This document shows positions 1 to 19,701 of a DNA stretch of 24,226 nucleotides, piece by piece. The stretch lies in the IMG/VR virus record IMGVR_UViG_3300031651_000020, positions 1 through 24,226 of that record, one strand, 5' to 3'. The notes below the pieces were generated by a model that was given only the letters and a program-made list of their open reading frames with translations, was not told the origin of the DNA and did not search any database. Within the stretch, counting starts at the first letter, position 1, and each line of letters begins with the position of its first letter. This DNA is from a virus. Lineage: Duplodnaviria; Caudoviricetes. The position numbers were made by a program, and so were the translations under genes.

Positions 1-282
1 GAGTTGGTATCAAGGGTTCATCCGACACAAAAACCAGTTGGATTATTTATAAGCATACTTAATGACTTTGGGGGAAATTCTATTTTGGATTCTTTCCTAG
101 GTTCAGGTACAACTCTAATCGCCTGCGAAAAACTTAACCGCATCTGCTATGGCATGGAAATTGAACCCCTGTATATTCAAGTCTGTCTCGATAGATGGGC
201 TAATTTTACAGGAAATGATCCCATAAGAGAAGACGGGAAAAAGTGGAGCGAAATGAAAGCAGAAATTTCAGAGGGAGCGTGA
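1..282 (+). CDS. DNA modification methyltransferase (N6/N4 family), C-terminal part; begins before the window
   Basis: HPTQKPV and ILDSFLGSGTTLIACEKLNRICYGMEI (SAM-binding motif); such methylases often sit just upstream of phage terminase genes. Confidence 0.9.
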   Translation, partial: ELVSRVHPTQKPVGLFISILNDFGGNSILDSFLGSGTTLIACEKLNRICYGMEIEPLYIQVCLDRWANFTGNDPIREDGKKWSEMKAEISEGA

Positions 283-834
283 AGCATGCCATCGAATTAT
301 AGCACAGGAACGACAATAAAGGCTTCGTCCTTTGGTTTGTTTGCCACAATCAATACAGGTTCTTGGCCTTCTTTTTGGAAGGAAGTTTTTATTGTGAATT
401 TTGCCATGACAATCAATGCAATAAGAAATGCCATTGTCAATATTAAACCTCAGTTCGGGATACTTGGAAAATGGTTTTATGTGGTGGGCATGAAGCTCTT
501 TTTTGTTCCCACATTTTTGGCAAGTATAGTTGTCTCGTTTAAAAACTGCTTCACGCCATTCCTTCAATTGATTAGAAAGGCGAGCTCTTTCACGAAACAT
601 AGACTTACCGTCTTTAAAGGCATTGCCACGAGTCCCCCGACGAGCACAAGAACGAGAACAAAATCTTTGAATTCTTATATAAGCCTTAAAGGGCTTTTGG
701 CAGAATTCACAGATTTTATTATCTGGAGGATTTCTATTATTCCAACATTTTTTACTGCAGTATTTAGAGTTTTCAGACCTATAAGGAAAGGCCCTATATT
801 CTTGTCCACAAATAACACAACTTTTCTTAACCAT
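268..834 (-). CDS. HNH endonuclease with Cys-rich zinc-binding repeats, antisense to the operon
   Basis: WREAVFKRDNYTCQKCG...LHAHHIKPF...NIDNGISYCIDCHGKIH HNH core; several CxxC...CSxxC motifs. Start placed at ATG 834 because the ORF track's TTG (870) is part of the -35 box. Confidence 0.9.
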   Translation of the reverse strand: MVKKSCVICGQEYRAFPYRSENSKYCSKKCWNNRNPPDNKICEFCQKPFKAYIRIQRFCSRSCARRGTRGNAFKDGKSMFRERARLSNQLKEWREAVFKRDNYTCQKCGNKKELHAHHIKPFSKYPELRFNIDNGISYCIDCHGKIHNKNFLPKRRPRTCIDCGKQTKGRSLYCRSCAIIRWHASRSL

Positions 835-5296: not shown

Positions 5297-6802
5297 ATGG
5301 CAAAGGAAATATTGACACAAAGACTAAAGCTTTCTGAGATAAAAGTTTCTTGGAACGATTTAAGGGAAGAGGCGATAAAAGATATATTGAAAAGTCCCAA
5401 AGTGCCTTACCGCAGCGCCGGGGATATTCCTTTTATCCGGAAGTTTTATGTTCAGGACAAGAAGGTGACGAAGGGCTTGCCGGAAGGGCAGGTACGGCAT
5501 TACATATCGACAATGGCTTTGGACAGAGACCATGAGATAATGATGCCGAAAGGAGCTAAGCTCAAGAACTACAAGAAGAATCCGATGGTTTTGTGGTCTC
5601 ATAACCCTTCGGATCCTGATAATATTATAGGCAAAAACCTCGAAATTGAACATGATGAGAAAGGCTTGGTGGCTCTGACGCAGTTCATTCTGACGAGCCC
5701 AAAGGCGGCAAGCATTTATAACTTGTTCAAAGAAGATTGGCTGAGGATGTGGTCGGTTGGATTCATACCGCTGAAAGGTCATAAACCAGAAAAGGGGGAC
5801 GGAAAGCTTTCAATTTCCATAGGTGAGCCCCCGAAGTCAGGTGAGGTGAGGTATGTCCATGACGTCTGGGAATTGTTGGAATACTCGGCCTGTGCTGTCC
5901 CATCGAATCCAGAAGCGGCGACTCTGGAAGTGGCTAAAGGTTACGACTTATCAGACGATCTGATTAAGGAGATGGGATTGAATCTTGAAAACATAAACAG
6001 GTTGAAGGCCAAGTTAGAAGGAGGGAAAGAGGATGGCAAAAAAATTATCGACTTGGGGGCTTTGAGTAAAGATGATAAGAAAAAAGAAGAACTCAAAGAG
6101 GAAAAGAAGGATGAGGATAAAACACAGGCGGAAGTTAAAGGGGCAATCCCTTACGCAGATCATGGAGCAGCAGATGAGGGAACAGCTTGGGATGGACCGA
6201 GAGAGATAAGGGAAGCAGATGTTGATGCGCTGAAAATAATCTGCGCATGGTATGATTCAGGAAATGCAGACAAAAAATCAAGCTATAAGTTGCCACATCA
6301 CAGAGCAGGAGACAAGAAGGCTGTATGGCGCGGGGTTTCGGCAGCTATGGGGGCATTGCTTGGGGCTCGTGGCGGAGTAGTAATCCCGGGTGGAGACAGG
6401 AAAAGCGTCTATGATCATCTGAAATCGCATTATAAACATTGGGACAAGGAGCCTCCTGACTTTAAAGATTACAGCGATGAGGAATTGACGGAAATATTTC
6501 CTGAGGAAAAGAAAGCAAAATATGAATGTGAATGTATTAAATGTGGTTATAAGATGGGAAGTGACGAACATTGTGCTGATATAAAATGCCCGAAATGCGG
6601 AGGAGAAATGAGAAGGGTAGAGCGTCCGGGGCCGGGTAGGAGTGATGAAGAGGAAGCAAGAAAGCAATTAGGGCTTACTGTTGAGGAATATGAAAATCTT
6701 AATTGGGATAGCGTAGAGGGCTTAGACCCGGAAGAGTTCAAAAAACTTTATGAAGAAGGTGAGAAAATTAGTGATGAGGAAGTTGGATATTATGAGCAAT
6801 AA
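5297..6802 (+). CDS. HK97-type prohead protease with C-terminal accessory domains
   Basis: DRDHEI..KG, KNPMVLWSH, MWSVGFIP, WELLEYSACAVPSNPEA protease motifs; then a charged linker, a YKLPHH...VWRGV.AAMGALLGARGG domain and a Cys zinc ribbon; AGGAGG SD. Confidence 0.9.
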   Translation: MAKEILTQRLKLSEIKVSWNDLREEAIKDILKSPKVPYRSAGDIPFIRKFYVQDKKVTKGLPEGQVRHYISTMALDRDHEIMMPKGAKLKNYKKNPMVLWSHNPSDPDNIIGKNLEIEHDEKGLVALTQFILTSPKAASIYNLFKEDWLRMWSVGFIPLKGHKPEKGDGKLSISIGEPPKSGEVRYVHDVWELLEYSACAVPSNPEAATLEVAKGYDLSDDLIKEMGLNLENINRLKAKLEGGKEDGKKIIDLGALSKDDKKKEELKEEKKDEDKTQAEVKGAIPYADHGAADEGTAWDGPREIREADVDALKIICAWYDSGNADKKSSYKLPHHRAGDKKAVWRGVSAAMGALLGARGGVVIPGGDRKSVYDHLKSHYKHWDKEPPDFKDYSDEELTEIFPEEKKAKYECECIKCGYKMGSDEHCADIKCPKCGGEMRRVERPGPGRSDEEEARKQLGLTVEEYENLNWDSVEGLDPEEFKKLYEEGEKISDEEVGYYEQ

Positions 6803-7322
6803 GAATAGATTCAAGTTTAAAAATATAATTTTTCATTTTTCTAATTGTATAGTGTTCGCTGTTAGGATGAAGTTCAAGATTTTCAAGAGAATTATTAGTT
6901 TTATTCCCATCTTTATGATGAACATGTTCCCAAGTTTCAAGAGGACGATCAAGAGATTTAGACATTACAAAACGATGTTCATAGATTTCGCCTCTTTTGT
7001 CAGCCATTGGATGATGCTTCCCAAGAAATATTTTTATATATCCATGATTAGTAGGTTTTCGTTGAAGAGGACGATTTCTATTCTTTTCTTCCCATGTAAG
7101 AAAACGATAGCAATTCTTACAAACACCAGTAAAAATGCCAGTTTTCAATCTTTTCAAAACTATGTCTTTCCGCCATGCACGAATATTGCCACATTTACCA
7201 CAAGATATATTAATCATAAGCCTTTTTGCCCCATTTGGATCAACTTTTTGAAATTCGTTTTCCCAATGAATTATCGATTTAGATTTAAGAATTTGATTTT
7301 TCAAAATTGTTTTCTTTTTCAT
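6768..7322 (-). CDS. HNH endonuclease (HNH_3-like), antisense to the operon
   Basis: GYIKIF...HPMAD..G.IYEHRFVM...L.RPL...EHVHHKDGNKTNNSLENLEL; AT-rich. Confidence 0.92.
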   Translation of the reverse strand: MKKKTILKNQILKSKSIIHWENEFQKVDPNGAKRLMINISCGKCGNIRAWRKDIVLKRLKTGIFTGVCKNCYRFLTWEEKNRNRPLQRKPTNHGYIKIFLGKHHPMADKRGEIYEHRFVMSKSLDRPLETWEHVHHKDGNKTNNSLENLELHPNSEHYTIRKMKNYIFKLESILIAHNIQLPHH

Positions 7323-7329
7323 AATATGA

Positions 7330-7358
7330 ATTATACCATATTAAAAGGAACAATTCAA
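7330..7358 (-). promoter_or_regulatory. sigma70-type promoter for the second HNH gene (predicted leaderless mRNA)
   Basis: Minus strand TTGAAT (7358-7353), 17 nt spacer ending TGG, TATAAT (7335-7330), 7 nt, then ATG at 7322; no SD. Confidence 0.8.
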
Positions 7359-7371
7359 GAGGAGGTGTAAC

Positions 7372-8052
7372 ATGCCATTTCCACAAGAACATTCATGCCG
7401 ATTAAAAAATCCTAATTTATTCACGCCTGGGTCATTCCGGAGCTACTCAAGAACGAGTGACGGCAAGAAATACCGAGTCATAGCAGGAAGGCTGAAGGGT
7501 GAAACGACAATGACAGAGCAGGGATTCAGGTATCCGAAGGATGCATGGACTTCGGCACAGGCAAGCAAGCATTGCAAAGATCATGACGGAATCAAGTTCG
7601 AGCCGGCGAAAGAAGTAGAGACATTGGACATTGACATTGCAAAGAATCTGTTAGAGGAGTTTAGCTTACTGAAAAATGACATAATGGAGATGAGATCAGG
7701 CAGAGTAATCTCGGCAAAGAACCGGAGGCTGCTCACGGATTGTCACGGCAAGATGAATGAGGCGGCACAAGCGTTGGCTGTTTTGTTGAAAGAAACAGCG
7801 GTAGAGGAAGAGAGAGATTCTGAGTCTGAGGCTGAGGAAGAGGAAAGGAGCGGAGACGACAAAAAATTAAAAATAAATTTTGAATTAGCGAAGTTGAAGC
7901 CACCAGTTAAAGCCGTCAAGGATGGTGATAAAGTGATAAAAGTTATTGACAAAGAGCAGGCCAAAAAGTTGGCTGAGGAACTCGTAGAGAAATTGGATTT
8001 GAGAAAAATAGTGCAGGAGAAGCTTGACTTTTTAAAAGGAAAAGTGCAATAA
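7372..8052 (+). CDS. Head assembly protein resembling the C-terminal/scaffold part of prohead proteases
   Basis: GAGGAGGT SD; PFPQEHSCRL...RYPKDAWT..A..HC..H.G..FEPA domain, then GRVISAKNRRLL and an acidic helical tail; lies between protease and capsid genes. Confidence 0.7.
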   Translation: MPFPQEHSCRLKNPNLFTPGSFRSYSRTSDGKKYRVIAGRLKGETTMTEQGFRYPKDAWTSAQASKHCKDHDGIKFEPAKEVETLDIDIAKNLLEEFSLLKNDIMEMRSGRVISAKNRRLLTDCHGKMNEAAQALAVLLKETAVEEERDSESEAEEEERSGDDKKLKINFELAKLKPPVKAVKDGDKVIKVIDKEQAKKLAEELVEKLDLRKIVQEKLDFLKGKVQ

Positions 8053-8277
8053 AGAAGAAATGACTATTAATATAACTACACACACATCGACTGAACTTGT
8101 TCACTACGGTCAAATAGCGAACTTGATAACTTCTTTATTAACAATAACTTAGGATGTAATGACTAAAAAAGGAACAAAATAGTTGAAAATATGATAAATA
8201 GTGATTATTTTATGAATAACGCTTTTAAAGTCCATTTAAGGACTATTTGAGATAGCATCTATTCTTGATTTTTGAGT

Positions 8278-8404
8278 AGATTTTAGTGAAGTAGCTGCCA
8301 GTAGAAAATGAAGCGAGCCCGGAGTAGCCGAAAGGCGAAGTGCTTGCGGAGTAATTTTCAAGGGGCAGTGAAGCGGAGTTGAAAGAGGTTGAGACTAGAA
8401 ATTT
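8278..8404 (+). ncRNA. Candidate structured cis-RNA in the capsid gene leader
   Basis: Nested helices GCTGCC/GGCAGT, GAAAAT/ATTTTC, GCGAGC/GCTTGC, GCC-GAAA-GGC, separated by AGUA/GAA internal loops; closing stem TTTTAGT/ACTAGAA next to the SD. Confidence 0.6.
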
Positions 8405-8420
8405 TTAAGGAGATAGAAAG

Positions 8421-9803
8421 TTGGGAAAAGAACAAGAAGAAAAAAACGAATTCACATTAAAAGACCTTAAAGAGCTTGTATCATCAATTATTGAGTCGAA
8501 TGTCATGAGCCAAGGGTTTGTCAAGCTGGGTGAACTGAAGGAACAGATCAAGACTGAATTGGCTTCGGTGGTGTCCGAGCAGAAAGACCTGAAAAAAGCA
8601 CTGGAAAAAGAGATTGAAAAGCTGGCAAATCTGCCAGGTCCCCGGGGTGATGTTGATGTAGGAAAAGATGGCGGAAACGAGCTCAAGGGCTTGAGTAAAT
8701 CAGGCGGGTATGATTCGTATTCGATGTTTGCGAAAGACGTGTATGTGGCATCAAAGCCTCAGGTCCGGGAATTAGCCCCCAGACTCAAGAAGTGGACAAG
8801 TGATGTAGAGGCATACGAGAAGATTATCATGAGCGGTAAGCCGGATTACGGTGATCCGTCATTAGTAATAAGCGATCCAGAACAGGGTGGTTATCTTATC
8901 CCCCCGGAATATTCAGCCAATTTGATGGAGAGAGGTTTTACCAATGCTGATTTCGCACCTATGGCGGATATTATCCCTATGGCAAGAAACACAGTCCACA
9001 TTCCTTTTATCAAGGATTTCACGCACACAACGTATTTGTACGGCGCTATGATGGCCTATTGGCTGGACGAACTTGGGACAAAATTGCCAACGAAGCCGAA
9101 ATTCGGAAAGACTACTCTTGAACTCAATAAGCTGGTGGTGTTGGTTTACAGCTCAGACGAATTACTGGAAGACTCCCCGATTTCGATGGAGCCCTTGCTC
9201 ACAAAGAAATCCGGGAACGTCATCAAGTGGAAAGTTGACGAATCAATGCTGGTAGGAACTGGAGTTGGACAGCCTCTCGGGGTTTTGAATTGCCCGGCGT
9301 TAATTCCTGTGCCCATTCAGGCAGGACAGGCAGCCGGTACTATAGTCTGGCAGAACATCGCCGACATGTGGAGCAGGGTGCATCCAGCATCAATACCGAA
9401 TGTTGTTTGGGTAGCGAATAACAGCATCTTCCCGCAGTTGATGGCGATGGCGATGGCAGTAGGAACAGGCGGAGCGCCGGTTTATCTACCTGCAAACGGT
9501 TTCAGTGCAAAGCCTTTTGACACCCTGATGGGCAAAAGAATAATCTGGTCTGAACACTCCCCGATTCTCGGACAGCAAGGTGATATTGCGCTAATAGACT
9601 GGAGTCAGTATATGGTTGGACAGAAAAGAGGCGCAGGCGCAGGAATCAAGACAGCGACATCGATTCATTTGATGTTCCTCTACGACCAGACAGCATTCAG
9701 GTTTGTATTCAGGATGGACGGTCAGCCCTGGTGGCCGACTGTTTTCACTCCCAAAAACGGCAACCCGCAATCCCCGTTCATAACTCTCAAGAAGAGAGTA
9801 TAG
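8421..9803 (+). CDS. Major capsid protein (HK97 fold) with N-terminal delta/scaffold-like coiled coil
   Basis: GGYLIPPEY, SDELLEDS, GTGVGQPLGVLN, TLMGKRI, DQTAFRFVFRMDGQP; TTG start with AAGGAG SD. Confidence 0.95.
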   Translation: MGKEQEEKNEFTLKDLKELVSSIIESNVMSQGFVKLGELKEQIKTELASVVSEQKDLKKALEKEIEKLANLPGPRGDVDVGKDGGNELKGLSKSGGYDSYSMFAKDVYVASKPQVRELAPRLKKWTSDVEAYEKIIMSGKPDYGDPSLVISDPEQGGYLIPPEYSANLMERGFTNADFAPMADIIPMARNTVHIPFIKDFTHTTYLYGAMMAYWLDELGTKLPTKPKFGKTTLELNKLVVLVYSSDELLEDSPISMEPLLTKKSGNVIKWKVDESMLVGTGVGQPLGVLNCPALIPVPIQAGQAAGTIVWQNIADMWSRVHPASIPNVVWVANNSIFPQLMAMAMAVGTGGAPVYLPANGFSAKPFDTLMGKRIIWSEHSPILGQQGDIALIDWSQYMVGQKRGAGAGIKTATSIHLMFLYDQTAFRFVFRMDGQPWWPTVFTPKNGNPQSPFITLKKRV

Positions 9804-9812
9804 GAGGACACG

Positions 9813-10442
9813 ATGGCACATACAGAATTTGAAAAAACAATCAAAACAACTCTCGGGATTTATCCTCAGGACATCAATGCTGCCGCTTTTGTAAGCCTTG
9901 TTACCTCCATGTCATTGGCTCATCATGCAGCAGTGTTTTTCAATGCTGGAGTTCTTGCGAGTGACGTTATTTGTAGTATCTATCAGGGATCGGAAGACCA
10001 TCCTGTAGTTGCAGTGACGTCGGGTGGAGCAGAAGCAGGTAATTTCGGTATAGCGGGAGACCTTACCGCATTGTTTACAGTAGGAGTATTGCTGGTGATT
10101 TCGGGTAGCACGGGTAACGATGGGATATACACGGTAGATGCGGCAGAATCTGCTTACGCAGGAGGAGTGACCACGATAGAGGTAGACGAAGCGGTTGCTT
10201 CGGCAGTTGCAGACGGAACTCTCACCCTTGTTAAAATCATTGCTGGAAAGACAATGACATTCACCGCGGCTACAGATTTGGCCATAAGCATCCTTGAGGC
10301 CAACGCTTCGGAGCTGGATATAGCGAACGGTTTCAAATCGATAATCGCTCATATTTCTGCCGTCGGAGCAAATGCTGGATTTGTTGGTTGCACAATTCAC
10401 AGATTCCCGCTGAGGTACTCGCCGCCTGCTTATGTTACCTGA
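9813..10442 (+). CDS. Probable capsid decoration/cement protein with an inserted beta-rich domain
   Basis: Immediately after the capsid gene, AGGAGG SD; Ala/Gly/Thr/Val-rich; ASELDIANGF and RY.P end; internal ISGSTGNDGIYTV module. Confidence 0.6.
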   Translation: MAHTEFEKTIKTTLGIYPQDINAAAFVSLVTSMSLAHHAAVFFNAGVLASDVICSIYQGSEDHPVVAVTSGGAEAGNFGIAGDLTALFTVGVLLVISGSTGNDGIYTVDAAESAYAGGVTTIEVDEAVASAVADGTLTLVKIIAGKTMTFTAATDLAISILEANASELDIANGFKSIIAHISAVGANAGFVGCTIHRFPLRYSPPAYVT

Positions 10443-11864: not shown

Positions 11865-12227
11865 ATGGCAGGAACAGTTACAAAGCTTGAAGAAACATAT
11901 GGAACAGTCAAGAAAATAGCTTTTTCCTGGCTTTCTACTGCCGGAGGACTTGCGGATCTGGTGACTACTGAATATTACTCTGGGAAGATATTGGGGCTCT
12001 GCACTGTGCCTGACGGCGTTGATGCCCCTGATGATAACTATGGTGTGGAACTCAAAGACGAGGACGGAGTGGATGTTTTGATGGGTGGAGGATTGTTGAG
12101 AGACACAGCCGATACGGAGTTTGTGCTTTCTGCGTCTCTTGGTGCTGTGGCCAACGACAAACTGCATCTTTATATAACTCTTGCAGGAGCAGCGAATAAG
12201 GGCAAAGTATACGTGTACATAAGGTGA
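11865..12227 (+). CDS. Hypothetical, probably structural beta-rich protein (120 aa)
   Basis: AGGAGG SD; acidic Gly-rich, DEDGVDVL.G.G, AGAANKGKVYVYIR; located in the head module. Confidence 0.7.
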   Translation: MAGTVTKLEETYGTVKKIAFSWLSTAGGLADLVTTEYYSGKILGLCTVPDGVDAPDDNYGVELKDEDGVDVLMGGGLLRDTADTEFVLSASLGAVANDKLHLYITLAGAANKGKVYVYIR

Positions 12228-12301: not shown

Positions 12302-13246
12302 ATGAAGGTTCTAATCGTAACTGACAAATATGCGATGTCAAATGACATATCAAACGGTTACCGGGTCGGCAAGGCTTTCGGGTCCTTGGGTCATGATGTT
12401 AGTTTTGTGAGTCCTGAAATGGCATCGACAAAGGCGGGAGACGCTGATTTCATTCTAGGGTTTAATTCACTTCTGTACAGTTACCGGATGTTCTTGAATG
12501 TATGGATATCGAAAGCGAAGGCCCCGAAGGCAAAATTTGCTATATGGAACTTTGATTCTTGTAGTGATATTGACGGAATGAATAAAATGCGCAACAGAAA
12601 CATCAGGAAAATAATCCCATATATAGACCTGCTGATTACAACGGATCACGACTTCCCTTGGGAAAACCATATTGATAATTATCTGCATTTAAGCCAGGGG
12701 GTCGATCCAGAAGATTTCAATTATACACTCGGCAACAATGAAGACAGGCCGTATGATGTGATTTATACTGGAGGGATATATGACAGAGAGCCGGAAAGAA
12801 TACAGGCTTTAGAGAAAATCGGACAAAAGTTCAAAAGTATTATTTATACTTCAAGCAATGGAGACAAACTTCCTGAGCTGAAAAAATTGACTTTGAAGGC
12901 TAGTGTTTACGGGAAAGATTTTTTCGATGCGTACCAGCAAGCAAAAATCGCTTTCGTGCCCAGGCCGCCCTCTGAAATCAAGGAAAACTACTGGAGTAAT
13001 CGGATTTATTTGGCAGCCGCTACGGGGACTTGTTGCCTTGTTGAATATGTGAAAGGTATAGAGAAAGAGTTTAATTCTTTTGAAGAAGTGTTGTATTCAT
13101 TTGGTAGCAACGATATTGTCGAAAAGATAAAATTTCTGTTGTCAGATCCAGGACTGAGGTTAGAGCTTGGCAGAAATGCAAGGCAGAGGGTTCTTAATAA
13201 TTATAAATATTCAAACAGAGTTAAAAAAATACTGGAGATCTTATGA
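12302..13246 (+). CDS. Glycosyltransferase, GT-B fold (CgeB / Glyco_trans_1_2-like)
   Basis: MKVLIV start, GHDV, HLSQGVDP, DVIYTG, YWSNRIY.AAATG, ELGRNARQRVLNNYKYSNRV. Confidence 0.85.
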   Translation: MKVLIVTDKYAMSNDISNGYRVGKAFGSLGHDVSFVSPEMASTKAGDADFILGFNSLLYSYRMFLNVWISKAKAPKAKFAIWNFDSCSDIDGMNKMRNRNIRKIIPYIDLLITTDHDFPWENHIDNYLHLSQGVDPEDFNYTLGNNEDRPYDVIYTGGIYDREPERIQALEKIGQKFKSIIYTSSNGDKLPELKKLTLKASVYGKDFFDAYQQAKIAFVPRPPSEIKENYWSNRIYLAAATGTCCLVEYVKGIEKEFNSFEEVLYSFGSNDIVEKIKFLLSDPGLRLELGRNARQRVLNNYKYSNRVKKILEIL

Positions 13247-13923
13247 AAATATCGCTGTTTATTCCTGTCTGGAAGCGGTTCAAATACCTTAAAAATGTGC
13301 TACAGGCATGGTCTCCGCAGGTTGATGACATAACAGTCTGGGATGATTCAGGAGAAGAAAGAAAATATTCCAGCAAAGTCACAGTGATAAGAGCCTCCAA
13401 AAGGCAAGGCAGTCATATCAAATTCAAAACAGCCCAGATTCTTAAGAACGACATGGTTCTGATAAGCGATGACGACATCATGCCGGGGCAAAATCTGGTT
13501 GCGGAACTCATGGCCGGATTCAATAAAATTCCATTGGATGACGAACTGAAAGTAATAACCATATTCGGGAGAAAGCTGTCTAAACACGGCTACCAAAGCT
13601 ATCCGCTGCAAAGGGCAGATCTGATTACAGAAATTCAGGAAGTTGATTGGGCAGGGCGACTGCTGTTTGGACATCGGAAGAATTTTATGATTGATATAAC
13701 CAAGTGCCCCAACTATTTGCTGGACGATCTGTTCTGGTCATTTGAGCTTCGCAGGCAAAGACCAAAAGCAAAGATATTTGTTATTCCTACAATAGAATGG
13801 GGGAATACCCTTGAAGCTAATGATAAAAATTCGCTTTGCAATATTCCCGGGTACTGGATAATGAGAAACAATTTTGTAAGAATGAATTACGAGAAATATT
13901 TTAATGAAGGGCACGAAAAATGA
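13243..13923 (+). CDS. Glycosyltransferase, GT-A fold
   Basis: MKISLFIPVWKR, ITVWDDSG, LISDDDI (DxD), DDLFWS; ATGA coupling. Confidence 0.8.
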   Translation: MKISLFIPVWKRFKYLKNVLQAWSPQVDDITVWDDSGEERKYSSKVTVIRASKRQGSHIKFKTAQILKNDMVLISDDDIMPGQNLVAELMAGFNKIPLDDELKVITIFGRKLSKHGYQSYPLQRADLITEIQEVDWAGRLLFGHRKNFMIDITKCPNYLLDDLFWSFELRRQRPKAKIFVIPTIEWGNTLEANDKNSLCNIPGYWIMRNNFVRMNYEKYFNEGHEK

Positions 13924-14672
13924 AGGCACGAGTATTGAACCATATTATGTATTTAGACCCTGAAGATCAGCTTATATCCAAAAATTTGTTTAATAATAAG
14001 GGTCATGAGCTTAACGAAACCGCCCTTGTATTAAAGACGCTAAAAAAGGGTGATGTGGCCATAGACATAGGAGCGCATATTGGTTATTTCACTTTGATAA
14101 TGGCAAGGTGTGTCGGGCGGCAGGGAAAGACATACGCTTTTGAGCCATCGCCTAGAAATTTTAAATTATTGCAAAAAAACGTTGATTACAATGGTTATAA
14201 GAATGCGACTCTCATCCCCAAAGCCGTCTCTGATAGATCGGAGGAAGCAACGTTATATCTGAATCCTGGGAACACGGGAAACAACATGCTTTTTAAAAGA
14301 ACTAATAATGTTCAAGGAATTCGGATTGAGACCATATCGCTTGACAATTATTTCTCTGACATTGATTTCAATATTGATTTCATTAAGATTGACGTAGAGG
14401 GTTCAGAGCCTTTGGTCATAAACGGGATGAAGAAAATACTTGAGGAGTTTGCATACATAAATCTAATGATAGAGTTTTTCCCGCAATTGCTCAGGGTTTC
14501 AGGATTTGACCCCCGGGCTTTCCTGGTCACGCTGAGAGAGCTTGGCTTTAAACTGTATTTTATAGAAAAAGGTAAGCTGAAAGCATTTAATCAAATCGCA
14601 AGCAGGTATATTAATCACCTAACTTGGCACAAAAACATTTATTGTGAGAGCATGATGAGGTATGAAAAATGA
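13920..14672 (+). CDS. FkbM-family SAM methyltransferase
   Basis: IDIGAHIGYFT, YAFEPSP.N, AVSD, DFIKIDVEGSEPLVING. Confidence 0.92.
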   Translation: MKARVLNHIMYLDPEDQLISKNLFNNKGHELNETALVLKTLKKGDVAIDIGAHIGYFTLIMARCVGRQGKTYAFEPSPRNFKLLQKNVDYNGYKNATLIPKAVSDRSEEATLYLNPGNTGNNMLFKRTNNVQGIRIETISLDNYFSDIDFNIDFIKIDVEGSEPLVINGMKKILEEFAYINLMIEFFPQLLRVSGFDPRAFLVTLRELGFKLYFIEKGKLKAFNQIASRYINHLTWHKNIYCESMMRYEK

Positions 14673-16484: not shown

Positions 16485-16903
16485 AAATTAACGGATTTAA
16501 AGACAGTGAATACGCTAGAGAACCTAGGACTGTCCTTAAAAGATACCTTGAAGAATGGGAGAAGAGAGACTGGGCTGGAATGGTTGAAGACACGCAAAAA
16601 TCTTGGGTGTTGGCAATGCCAGATCCAGAAGAGATGCTGAAGGTCATCTTTTCATATAAGCCAATTGAGGCTACCTTGATAAGGGAAGCGATGTTGAGCA
16701 ACGTAGCTTATGCCTGTATATTAAACATGCAATATCTGGTGGCTAGAGGGGTTGTGGCAGACGTCCAGTTTGACGCGAGAGTTATCTGTGAGATTGATCA
16801 GCTGATGCCGTCTCCTGATGGAGATTGGGGAGTGAACCCCATCAGCTTGACCCCGACAATGGGGCTTGGATATAAAAATGATAAGGCCGAAAATCGTTGT
16901 TAA
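16481..16903 (+). CDS. Hypothetical protein (140 aa)
   Basis: ATGA-coupled ORF in the neck module ending CE....PSPDGDWGVNPISL; no function recognised. Confidence 0.7.
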   Translation: MKINGFKDSEYAREPRTVLKRYLEEWEKRDWAGMVEDTQKSWVLAMPDPEEMLKVIFSYKPIEATLIREAMLSNVAYACILNMQYLVARGVVADVQFDARVICEIDQLMPSPDGDWGVNPISLTPTMGLGYKNDKAENRC

Positions 16904-18353
16904 GCCTGGTAAGGTATTTCTTACAAATTGTAAGTTATTGCCGGTCAAGGTGAGAGAAGCAGTCAAAAAAGCGACGCTGATGACTGCCTATCAGATTCAT
17001 AACGACGCCAAAATTTTGTGTGTTCATCCACGAACGAAAGTTTTGACTAATGATGGCTGGAAGCCAATTAAAGACATATCTACAGGTGAATTAATTGTTA
17101 CAGAATCAGGAAAAATGAAGCCAGTAGAACAAATCGTAAAAAGTAAGCCTAAAGAAATTATCAGGCTTTATATAAACGCCATAAATAATGGTTTAACGCA
17201 AATAAAAGGCACATTTTCGTCTATTTCAGCAAGCCCAGAACATATAATAAAAACAAGTCTGGGTTGGAAAAAATTCGGTGATATTATTGAGGGCGAAAAA
17301 ATATATTTTCTTGCTTCAAAATGTAAAGAATGTGGTAAATTAAAGCCTTTTTTTAGTGTTTTTTGTTCTCAATCTTGTGGCGGAAAATGGAAATATAAAC
17401 ACGGAGAAGGAGAAAAGGGCTTGAAAATAGGACACGTTAAAGCAAAAGAATTTGCCCAAAAAAGAGACAGTGAATTAATTATAAAGAAAGGGAAAGAATG
17501 GAGAGAGAATAATCCAGAAAAAGTAAAAAAATATCATGCAAGACAAGGTAGAACGCTTGCTGAATTTTATAAGAAATATCCTGAGAAACATCCGAATGCT
17601 GTTTGTGCGAAAAATCATTTCTTTACAAAACTAGAGAGGAAGATCAAAAAATTATTACAAGAATTAAATATTGATTATATCCATCAATTTAAAGTTTGCA
17701 AATATTGGGCAGATTTTTCTTTGCCAAACATGAAGATTTTATTGGAATGCGATGGCGAGCACTGGCATCGAGATAAAAATAAAGAGGATAAAAGAGATAA
17801 AGAAATAAAAAAATTAAAACCAGATTATCGATTAATCCATTTAAGTGAGGAAGAGATTAATAATATAACGATGACTGGTTTATCTCAATACTTATCATGT
17901 GGTTTAGGCGATATTAGACTTATTGAGTTGAAGGTCAAGAAGATTAAAAGAATAAAAACCCCAAAATATTGTCCTCATTTTATCGATTTAGTAATTAATG
18001 GAGGTAAGGGAACGTTTATCGCGAATGGATTTTTAGTCCATAATTGTCCGGTCGATACGGGCAGGCTGAGAGCATCGATTTCCGTAAACTGGACAGGCAG
18101 TGGTATGTCGTATGGCAAGGTTACAGGGAAAACATCGGCAAAGGCCGGAAGGAAACCAAGCTCTGGCTCAGATGGAGTCGGGCAGCCCCCGAAGGAAATG
18201 GGTGGTTTTTACGCTTCTGTGGGTACTAATGTGGAGTATGCAGAGGATGTCGAGAATTATACATCTCCTTATCTGTGGCCCGCATTTGCTATGAACAGAG
18301 AGAAATACAAGGCGGCTTTGGTGATCGCGTTGGGAGCGGCTATAAAATTATGA
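16878..18353 (+). CDS. HK97 gp10-like neck/tail-completion protein, intein-containing precursor
   Basis: Removing the intein joins DAKIL to CPVDTGRLRASI and VGTNVEYA..VE...PYLWPA (~149 aa); ATG 16878 preferred as start. Confidence 0.85.
   Translation: MIRPKIVVKPGKVFLTNCKLLPVKVREAVKKATLMTAYQIHNDAKILCVHPRTKVLTNDGWKPIKDISTGELIVTESGKMKPVEQIVKSKPKEIIRLYINAINNGLTQIKGTFSSISASPEHIIKTSLGWKKFGDIIEGEKIYFLASKCKECGKLKPFFSVFCSQSCGGKWKYKHGEGEKGLKIGHVKAKEFAQKRDSELIIKKGKEWRENNPEKVKKYHARQGRTLAEFYKKYPEKHPNAVCAKNHFFTKLERKIKKLLQELNIDYIHQFKVCKYWADFSLPNMKILLECDGEHWHRDKNKEDKRDKEIKKLKPDYRLIHLSEEEINNITMTGLSQYLSCGLGDIRLIELKVKKIKRIKTPKYCPHFIDLVINGGKGTFIANGFLVHNCPVDTGRLRASISVNWTGSGMSYGKVTGKTSAKAGRKPSSGSDGVGQPPKEMGGFYASVGTNVEYAEDVENYTSPYLWPAFAMNREKYKAALVIALGAAIKL
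17019..18044 (+). mobile_element. Intein (342 aa) with zinc finger and Vsr/DUF559-like endonuclease
   Basis: Starts CVHPRTKVLTNDGWKPIKDI, block B SPEH, ends FIANGFLVHN followed by Cys+1; internal YWADF...LLECDGEHWH; more AT-rich than flanks. Confidence 0.92.
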
Positions 18354-18754
18354 GCGACAACACAAGCTATCCAATTGAAGCCTTGCAGACAACTTTGCAT
18401 ACGCTTCTAATCGGTATTACAGGAGGATTATACGATGAGGTCCCGGAAGGCGCAGGCCTACCGTATTCGACTTTTGGCGACATGGTTGATGAGCCTATGG
18501 AAGCCCGGGGAGTTAAGGGCAGGATGGTTGTTGTGCCGATTCATGTCTACAGCAAGGATTCAGGTGGCAGGTTTCAGGCTGCCGGTATAATGAAAGAGAT
18601 AGTGGAACTGGTGACAGCAGATGCCTTAACGATAGTTGGTTGGCAGGATTGTGGAAAAGTATATAAGGCCGGAAAGATAGAGAGGATGAAAAAGGATAGC
18701 GGATACAGCTATCACGGGATATTGACTTTTTTAATAACGGTGTGCAAAAAATGA
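18350..18754 (+). CDS. Tail terminator/completion protein (DUF3168-like)
   Basis: ALQ..L...L, LYDEVPEGA.LPY..FG, IHVYS, YHGIL.F; ATGA overlap at 18350. Confidence 0.8.
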   Translation: MSDNTSYPIEALQTTLHTLLIGITGGLYDEVPEGAGLPYSTFGDMVDEPMEARGVKGRMVVVPIHVYSKDSGGRFQAAGIMKEIVELVTADALTIVGWQDCGKVYKAGKIERMKKDSGYSYHGILTFLITVCKK

Positions 18755-19701
18755 GACTAGATGACGTGGCGGTAGTGGTCACTACTTTTATGAGGGAGAA
18801 CGACTGCATGAAATGTTTATCTAGCATAAGGAAATTCTACCCAGATATAAAGGTGCTTGTGGCAGATAATGGAAGGCATAAGGACGAGCGGTTTATTAAT
18901 TTTCTGGACAGGATGAATATTGACTATGTAATTCTTCCTTTTGATAGCGGGGTAAGCAAGACCAGAAACGTTGCATTGGACAACTTAAAGGATTTCCCCT
19001 ATATTCTATTATTAGAGGACGACATGGAACTCACTGAGGAATCGGAAATCGAGAAATTCAAGGCTGTTCTTGAGGCGGAGCCAGGACTCGGGATGATAGC
19101 TGGGGCGATTGATCTAGATAGCGGAGCCAGGGCACTTTGGGCACAGCAATTGGAAATCAATAGGAAAGACAAAATGCTTTTCTCGTATCCGATAGTGAAT
19201 CCAGAATGGATTGTATCGAATGGCGTGAGATGGCATTATGCAGATCAGGCCAGTAATTTTGTCTTGTTGAGAAACAATCAAGACATAAGATGGGACAGCG
19301 ATTTGAAGTCCGGAGGAGAGCATATAGATTTTGCAATTCACATAAAGCTTGATACAGCTTGGAGATGCAGCGTAACTGATGAGGTTATTTGCCTTCATCA
19401 TGCCGGAGAAAAAACACCTGGCTATCTGAGACGCAGGCACAGAGGCGACACGTGGCCAAAGATAAGGAAAAAGAGAGGGTTGTTATTCTGGGTTGAAAAC
19501 AGCAGAAAAGCAATCTGGGATTACAAAAATGCGAGAGGAATATTTTATCCTGAATATATGTATAATCTGATGAAGACCATAAACGAATCTAACGGTAAAA
19601 AACTTGCAAAGAATAAGGATTTTTTAAGAAAAATAAACAGGGGTGAAACCTTAGAGGTTAATTTAAAGCACCCCGATTTTAAGGAGGCTCAAAATGGCTG
19701 A
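18751..19701 (+). CDS. Glycosyltransferase family 2
   Basis: VVVTTFMR, VLVADNG, FDSGVSKTRN, ILLLEDD, GEHIDF; ATGA overlap. Confidence 0.88.
   Translation: MRLDDVAVVVTTFMRENDCMKCLSSIRKFYPDIKVLVADNGRHKDERFINFLDRMNIDYVILPFDSGVSKTRNVALDNLKDFPYILLLEDDMELTEESEIEKFKAVLEAEPGLGMIAGAIDLDSGARALWAQQLEINRKDKMLFSYPIVNPEWIVSNGVRWHYADQASNFVLLRNNQDIRWDSDLKSGGEHIDFAIHIKLDTAWRCSVTDEVICLHHAGEKTPGYLRRRHRGDTWPKIRKKRGLLFWVENSRKAIWDYKNARGIFYPEYMYNLMKTINESNGKKLAKNKDFLRKINRGETLEVNLKHPDFKEAQNG

Follow-up and report, generated by a model that had tools for sequence, protein, structure and literature searches.

How can a homing endonuclease gene lie backwards within a tightly coupled, essential operon? The question is raised by a 24,226-nucleotide (nt) stretch of a Caudoviricetes virus (positions 1 to 24,226 of IMG/VR record IMGVR_UViG_3300031651_000020; hereafter the window), a tailed-phage late region in which the host genes all lie on the + strand (methyltransferase, likely small terminase, large terminase, portal, MuF, prohead protease, capsid, and tail) and two HNH genes lie on the − strand. 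The principal subject of this analysis is the HNH gene at 7322–6768. A preliminary description of the window had proposed that this gene is selected to leave its operon-strand frame open as far as the start of the next gene. Our survey of gene orientation among relatives strongly supports such selection, and we consider it probable that a mobile HNH cassette was inserted backwards in a prohead-protease gene and that its stop-free operon-strand frame keeps the late head operon expressed by means of a ribosome bridge.

A reversed HNH gene devoid of TTA, CTA, and TCA codons

The HNH gene (6768–7322, − strand) encodes a 184-amino-acid (aa) endonuclease with four N-terminal Cys residues and an intact H135/H136-N144-N148-H157 motif, in which H135, H136, N144, and N148 are invariant or almost invariant and H157 is retained. 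The protein matches Pfam HNH_3 with 33.4 bits (cut-off 24.8); a sequence-based search of solved structures in the PDB with the HNH family profile gave no match. A stop codon in the operon-strand frame that shares the codon register of the gene would require a TTA, CTA, or TCA codon, and codon counting bears out the earlier statement that the 16 Leu and 8 Ser codons include none of these. Specifically, Leu is encoded by CTT (13) and TTG (3), with TTA and CTA at 0, and Ser is encoded by TCT (6), TCG (1), and AGC (1), with TCA at 0. The + strand open reading frame (ORF) at 6750–7370 is, again as first described, exactly codon-aligned with the HNH gene; its frame is open from stop to stop over 6726–7370, and the other two + frames over the gene contain 17 and 15 stops. 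The intein at 17019–18044 (GC 0.31), for which more than ten TTA codons had been claimed, contains 16.

The estimates based on synonymous codons that the preliminary description had outlined were run and make an open antisense frame improbable, with values from 3e-3 to 2e-9. In particular, the chance of zero TTA, CTA, and TCA codons is 0.003 under the codon use of the window host genes, 1.4e-4 from the positional base use of the HNH gene itself, 2.3e-6 from its own third-position habits, and 1.5e-8 under intein codon use; with 40 AT-rich sense-oriented HNH genes as the model, 12.8 such codons are expected and 0 are seen (P 2.2e-9). An explanation by chance or codon bias can point to the window host genes, in which runs free of the three codons reach 176 codons, so that a single case needed relatives, and to HNH genes of high GC, which are often open by chance (P about 0.15–0.2 for L006, L016, and L181, three loci of the survey below). 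The gene at 7322–6768, however, has a GC content of 0.19 at third codon positions (GC3), with 36 of 40 Lys, Glu, and Gln codons ending in A, and the family-wide absence of the three codons and the strict dependence of openness on orientation refute this explanation, to which we assign a vanishingly small probability. The absence of TTA, CTA, and TCA is real, selected, and beyond chance, and the locus has the defining feature of ambigrammatic coding, an in-register reverse ORF maintained through avoidance of these codons.

Long runs free of the three codons are also present in two host genes of higher GC, at 9813–10442 (176 of 210 codons) and 11865–12227 (121 of 121 codons).

The open frame tracks orientation within the operon

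The 80 best matches were taken from each of three scans (568, 557, and 547 confirmed matches listed), giving 240 loci, which form 223 clusters at 80% identity; all counts by orientation given here apply among the matches listed. Orientation was called from the flanking ORFs with a simple ORF picker, openness was scored in the gene core (omitting the first 20 and last 15 codons), and 33 clusters of mixed or unknown orientation, 2 of them open, were excluded. At first classing, the frame was open in 17 of 30 antisense HNH clusters and in 1 of 160 sense clusters. The only open cluster initially scored as sense, L080, is neighbored by an opposite-strand major head gene and was therefore re-classed as antisense, after which the counts, with the window copy included, are 18/31 for antisense clusters and 0/159 for sense clusters (Fisher 3e-17). 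With both window families removed, the frame is open in 7/19 antisense clusters versus 0/159 sense clusters (0.43 expected), and among HNH genes at strand boundaries it is open in 1/11. This is the comparison of antisense and sense homologs put forward in the preliminary description, and open frames proved not to be equally common in the two orientations. Flanking genes were scanned against PHROGs for 69 of 107 listed flank ORFs, covering antisense flanks in part and no sense flanks, and matches were found for 34 of 58 opposite-strand ORFs and for 0 of 11 same-strand candidates.

The window HNH gene belongs to a clade of nine members, each with zero TTA, CTA, and TCA codons and with 9–16 and 5–17 stops in the other two operon-strand frames; its eight relatives in the clade have a mean identity of 46% and are all open. 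In a quick tree of 122 HNH_3 cores, these nine open genes form a clade with a support of 91, with the closed gene of L088 as sister. The open genes of L112, L060, L080, L044, and L016 are placed among closed sense genes in this poorly resolved tree, the sole starred placement among these scattered open cases being that of L112 as sister to a closed sense gene with a support of 97. Synonymous sites in the HNH family are near saturation. Taken together, the open frame tracks orientation within the operon, evolved on more than one occasion, and is not a universal feature. Among cultured examples, the 7 matches examined in 76 and 129 records all lie on the strand of their neighbors or under a same-strand methylase gene.

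A further feature of the open antisense HNH genes is a scarcity of the Ser codon AGT (13/166 Ser codons, versus 342/1516 in sense genes), which is not related to stops and may be a family effect.

The HNH cassette lies within a probably split prohead-protease gene

The HNH gene is flanked by two + strand ORFs. The upstream ORF (5297–6802) contains the prohead-protease S78 domain at residues 80–210, and its last 11 codons and stop overlie the 3′ end of the HNH gene, giving an overlap of 35 nt. The downstream ORF (7372–8052) contains a PFPQEHSCR module (motif at 7375–7401), which is the insertion site of the HNH family, and a C-terminal module. In 10 of 10 loci of the HNH family with that flank, the HNH gene lies directly before a P(F/Y)PxEH(S/A)CR module or a worn form of it, whatever the upstream gene. 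A search with the module identified 29 other loci (24 distinct), with an antisense HNH gene ahead of the module in 0/29. The module begins an ORF in 10 of these 29 loci and lies within a longer ORF in the other 19, of which 13 match the window protease domain upstream of the module. In L244, L247, and L248, moreover, a protease part and the C-terminal module of the 7372 ORF are present in a single ORF. Judged from these arrangements, a single prohead-protease gene, divided at the Lys-Pro junction, likely gave rise to the two flanking ORFs of the window, and the HNH insert likely caused the split; L002 shows the same apparent arrangement.

Of 24 empty alleles, 18 carry the exact sequence PYPNEH, which none of 10 cassette alleles has (Fisher 6e-5). 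The cassette allele thus appears altered at the presumed recognition site, as expected of an allele immune to its own nuclease, the motif being the putative cut site. In L001, a short remnant of the start of the old motif is present on the entry side, suggesting that the insertion point lay inside the motif and that a new start took the place of the old one. The insert likely supplies the stop of the 5′ half of the protease gene, a new Shine-Dalgarno (SD) sequence and ATG, and a leaderless-type promoter; in every family member examined, the 3′ half has its own SD sequence and ATG.

An insert that interrupts a gene continuous in relatives might be removed or skipped, as a self-splicing intron or by ribosomal bypass, with the open frame as a by-product. 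This account is very unlikely: an Rfam scan of the entire window at E up to 1 gave no match and hence no ribozyme core around the HNH ORF, the insert is HNH coding apart from 49 nt, and the separate SD sequence and ATG of the 3′ half again speak against it. Pfam likewise identified no intein domain in the HNH ORF, and the gene appears, from these searches, to be free-standing and outside any self-splicing intron or intein. Low-share sequencing runs over 6200–8100 contained no joint across the cassette; a joint from 6552 to 7380 in two other runs, with a short side (34) and unclear filling, was not counted. A resemblance ("YYEQ") of the protease end to L267 was disregarded in placing the junction, since the last codons of the HNH gene give Tyr-Tyr in that frame.

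The approximately 75-aa PxPxEHxCR module (window 7375–7600; L243–L271) has no Pfam or PHROG match. Its positions in head-assembly proteins vary: it occurs within proteases, at the beginning of ORFs, and on its own, as a 75–82 aa ORF beside the HNH gene, and it may itself be mobile or move with the nuclease. The module is a predicted new target site of an HNH family.

The frame bridges the HNH gene from one host ORF to the next

The + strand ORF at 6750–7370, hereafter the bridge, spans the HNH gene and the 49-nt promoter segment that follows, and stays open throughout that segment. Its TAA stop at 7368–7370 is separated by one base from ATG 7372, the spacing first described. The preliminary description also placed the start of the bridge within the end of the protease gene; the ATG at 6750 does exist but has a poor SD sequence (−2.2 kcal/mol), and ATG 6792, with the best SD sequence of three candidates (−5.8 kcal/mol) and a position 10 nt ahead of the end of the protease stop at 6802, is the likeliest start. 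The last codons of the bridge encode the SD sequence for ATG 7372, AGGAGGT (7360–7366, + strand; −13.0 kcal/mol), for which weak pairing with the opening codons of the downstream ORF is predicted (opening energy 7.8). SD opening energies are 6.7–10.8 in cassette alleles versus 4.2–7.9 at stand-alone empty starts (P 0.026; 6 versus 6 chosen loci), a difference that is suggestive only of cassette starts being harder to open.

Nine open loci were examined, comprising seven relatives and both window cases, which are kin, such that the following counts are not independent. In 9/9, the bridge frame has no stop in the non-coding segment that separates the HNH gene from the next gene (versus 5/18 control frames). 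Relative to the next start, the bridge terminates at −4 to +23 nt, and relative to the stop upstream, an in-frame ATG is present at −16 to +31 nt, again in 9/9. Because the non-coding segment is under no constraint from the HNH protein, what selection favors is a frame that extends to the next start. A terminator scan of the + strand over 6600–8500 detected no terminator.

The 49-nt segment contains a sigma-70-type promoter on the − strand (7330–7358), with a −35 element TTGAAT at 7358–7353, a 17-nt spacer, and TG plus TATAAT at 7335–7330, matching at 10/12 positions plus the TG. The promoter ends 7 nt before the HNH ATG, a spacing that is the same in 6 relatives, and the HNH transcript is predicted to be leaderless, with its 5′ end at 7322–7323. 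Leaderless-type promoters are present in 9/17 open antisense cases (7 of the 9 being one family), 0/11 other antisense cases, and 13/153 sense cases. This distribution, together with a strong convergent promoter inside the bridge, would be in keeping with a bridge that serves nuclease control, in which ribosomes on the operon mRNA prevent it from forming a duplex with the antisense transcript of the HNH gene or adjust the level of HNH expression. We regard this possibility as unlikely, since it leaves unexplained why the frame runs through the promoter segment to the next start at 9/9 loci, and since 8/17 open cases have no such promoter.

The bridge frame is conserved and its product is not

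An alternative offered in the preliminary description was true dual coding. The bridge would then encode a protein with a function of its own, for example a nuclease inhibitor or a membrane protein. The retention of an ORF of about 190 codons with SD-like starts in 9/9 clade members is in line with such a function. At conserved four-fold sites, moreover, third bases are identical at a frequency of 0.37 versus 0.30 at saturation (sense controls, about 0.30 versus 0.27–0.29), a small excess that possibly reflects weak constraint on the bridge and that could likewise be read as dual coding. The bridge proteins themselves, however, argue otherwise. Eight of them share 3 invariant columns, and their identity is no greater than the HNH residues force: 0.351 versus 0.330 ± 0.014 expected with codons redrawn under the HNH residues according to the family's own codon habits, a comparison whose power is limited to 4 independent pairs, and 0.306 versus 0.297 over all pairs. 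Conserved Gly, Pro, and Arg columns vary synonymously, with 2–4 codons each; the bridge protein has no match in Pfam or PHROG and has Atlas scores below 0.9; and unrelated HNH families show the same design. The dual-coding alternative is therefore unsupported by these comparisons, and we judge it improbable. The frame of the bridge is conserved and the product is not, and the product is, as far as the sequences indicate, likely irrelevant. Selection of this kind acts on a reading frame for translation itself and not for its product, and the locus offers a natural system in which to ask why prokaryotes contain long antisense ORFs.

A proposed ribosome bridge across the cassette

The mechanism that we propose would begin with cutting of an empty allele at the module and homing of the HNH cassette to it, with the backward insertion splitting the prohead-protease gene. 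The cassette region contains the stop of the 5′ half, a nearby in-frame ATG, the open frame, and the SD sequence and ATG of the 3′ half. Ribosomes leaving the 5′ half of the protease would resume translation at ATG 6792 and finish at the next start, ATG 7372, and on the way would shield about 580 nt of RNA, U-rich and with C>G, that would otherwise be prone to Rho termination or decay; the HNH protein would be expressed from its own, predicted leaderless, antisense transcript. Untranslated RNA that is U-rich and has more C than G is open to Rho termination or cleavage, which here would fall ahead of the capsid and tail genes. The operon strand within the HNH gene has 39% U and a C−G skew of +0.08, versus −0.12 to −0.31 for host genes. 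Because the downstream SD sequence is strong, protection from polarity would be the main gain and re-initiation a helper; a ribosome relay, with coupling perhaps secondary, is the most likely form of the mechanism on the sequence evidence.

Several observations weigh against this proposal. First, the bridge is not obligatory: 13/31 antisense HNH genes are not fully open. These include L088 (1797–2354), the sister of the family, which is antisense, occupies the family site in worn form, and has 9 TTA, CTA, or TCA codons, and L163, a member of the second window family, which has 4. L272, a further member of the first family, has one such codon close to its start, which breaks the bridge about 83 nt before the next start, and segD of phage T4, which is also reversed in its operon, has 9 such codons, such that its operon-strand frame is not open. 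Second, the orientation calls rest on a simple ORF picker and a partial PHROG check. Third, entry starts are weak or distant at some loci, as in L001, where the start lies +31 nt away, after a 10-codon remnant; the SD sequence of ATG 7372 is strong (−13.0 kcal/mol), which lessens the need for coupling, and the predicted hairpin is weak; and the C>G skew is in part simply the reverse of a purine-rich gene. Finally, the idea that the C-terminal His codon is kept as CAT in order to supply the bridge ATG was rejected, CAT being used in 12/13 cases versus 73/93 for other His codons, which is not significant. L088, which is also without a leaderless-type promoter, serves as a natural contrast case.

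With somewhat less confidence, we lean toward the broader view that self-neutralizing homing cassettes, combining a reversed nuclease gene, a leaderless promoter, and a reverse-strand ribosome bridge, are a widespread class that evolved repeatedly. If this is true, such cassettes would be a third way, beside RNA splicing and protein splicing, by which a selfish gene spares its host, and a bacterial-virus counterpart of ambigrammatic coding. A nuclease could in this manner split an essential late-operon gene without polarity, which would explain how a homing endonuclease gene comes to lie backwards in a tightly coupled operon. For annotation, there is a risk that gene callers choose the longer + strand ORF and miss the nuclease, and a protease gene split in this way looks like two genes.

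Relation to known systems

The ShiLan domain, as presented in the available text of its description, is a hidden out-of-frame HNH in mycobacteriophage methylases (PMC11855218). It resembles the window case in being a non-splicing HNH insert in a phage gene with a second, stop-free frame, and its authors propose leaderless translation of the HNH (PMC11855218). The ShiLan HNH, however, shares the strand of its host gene, with which it is out of frame, and the host product is a single fusion (PMC11855218), whereas the window HNH gene is antisense, has a predicted promoter of its own, and lies in a host gene that is likely split, with an open frame that is a separate ORF in neither host frame. In particular, the window HNH gene is on the opposite strand, and there is no fusion read-through, the protease frame ending at 6802. 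The words reverse, antisense, opposite, and promoter are absent from the main text of the ShiLan paper (PMC11855218).

Free-standing endonucleases of T4-type phages provide further parallels, as far as the accessible portion of a review describes them (PMC2988022). T4 segD is a free-standing nuclease gene reversed in a head operon, lying antisense between genes 23 and 24, for which the review reports no promoter; the other endonuclease genes of T4 have the same direction as their operon (PMC2988022). T4 mobA and Aeh1 mobE are HNH genes whose insertion divides a host gene, which then yields two polypeptides, and overlap with neighboring stops is likewise seen among T4-type endonucleases (PMC2988022). 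By contrast with the window, a bridge ORF is not mentioned for segD, mobA, or mobE in that portion of the review (PMC2988022). Ambigrammatic narnaviruses, in the sections available, share an in-register reverse ORF over a real gene, with translation itself proposed to matter (PMC8316113, PMC8155312), but are eukaryotic RNA viruses with a segment-wide reverse ORF, no link between host cistrons, and no mobile DNA element (PMC8316113).

The preliminary description knew of no published "polarity-neutral" antisense endonuclease cassette, and we likewise found no description of an antisense nuclease with a bridging ORF in the literature searched, with supplements and most subscription papers outside the search. 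The parts are known separately; their combination into a host-sparing design is a variant of the free-standing homing endonuclease that we did not find in print.

A second antisense HNH gene and other elements of the window

The second − strand HNH gene of the window (268–834) matches Pfam HNH and is unrelated to the first. Its promoter (870–842) ends 7 nt before ATG 834, and its bridge (286–936, + strand) has an ATG 3 nt after the methyltransferase stop and a stop that overlaps ATG 929. Close relatives lie at the 3′ end of ParB-methyltransferase genes, with L161 and L162 open and L163 partly closed. In one sequencing run, possibly of the source sample, contig depth was about 25 over the second HNH gene and about 132 over the rest, including the HNH gene at 7322–6768, a crude measure that hints that the second HNH gene is polymorphic.

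In L162 and L163, the bridge ends with a left-over copy of the methyltransferase tail. In L181 (1703–3369), it starts with an apparent old host-gene N-terminus, a near copy of which follows the HNH gene, and translation from the original start codon would enter the bridge. Such remnants would fit an origin of the bridge as a relic of a ShiLan-like in-frame insertion, in which a former fusion was read through and the open frame was inherited and not maintained. For the family of the first HNH gene, this origin is largely refuted: the window bridge is in a frame different from those of both host halves, with the protease stopping at 6802 and three frames involved, and with synonymous sites near saturation a frame free of selection would by now have acquired stops. 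We consider it quite unlikely, and the proposal of a frame maintained for bridging ribosomes is retained.

In L044 (2166–3775), an open antisense HNH gene lies between ORFs that end like what we take to be the His and Asp halves of a C39-like peptidase; with an unrelated HNH, this locus is a possible second case of gene splitting. Within the window, the intein at 17019–18044, inside the gene at 16866–18353, carries a DUF559/Vsr-like endonuclease and is a third selfish element of the late region. Among the head and tail genes, ORFs at 12302–14672 and 18742–19701 resemble, by eye, what are presumably glycosyltransferases and an FkbM-type methyltransferase.

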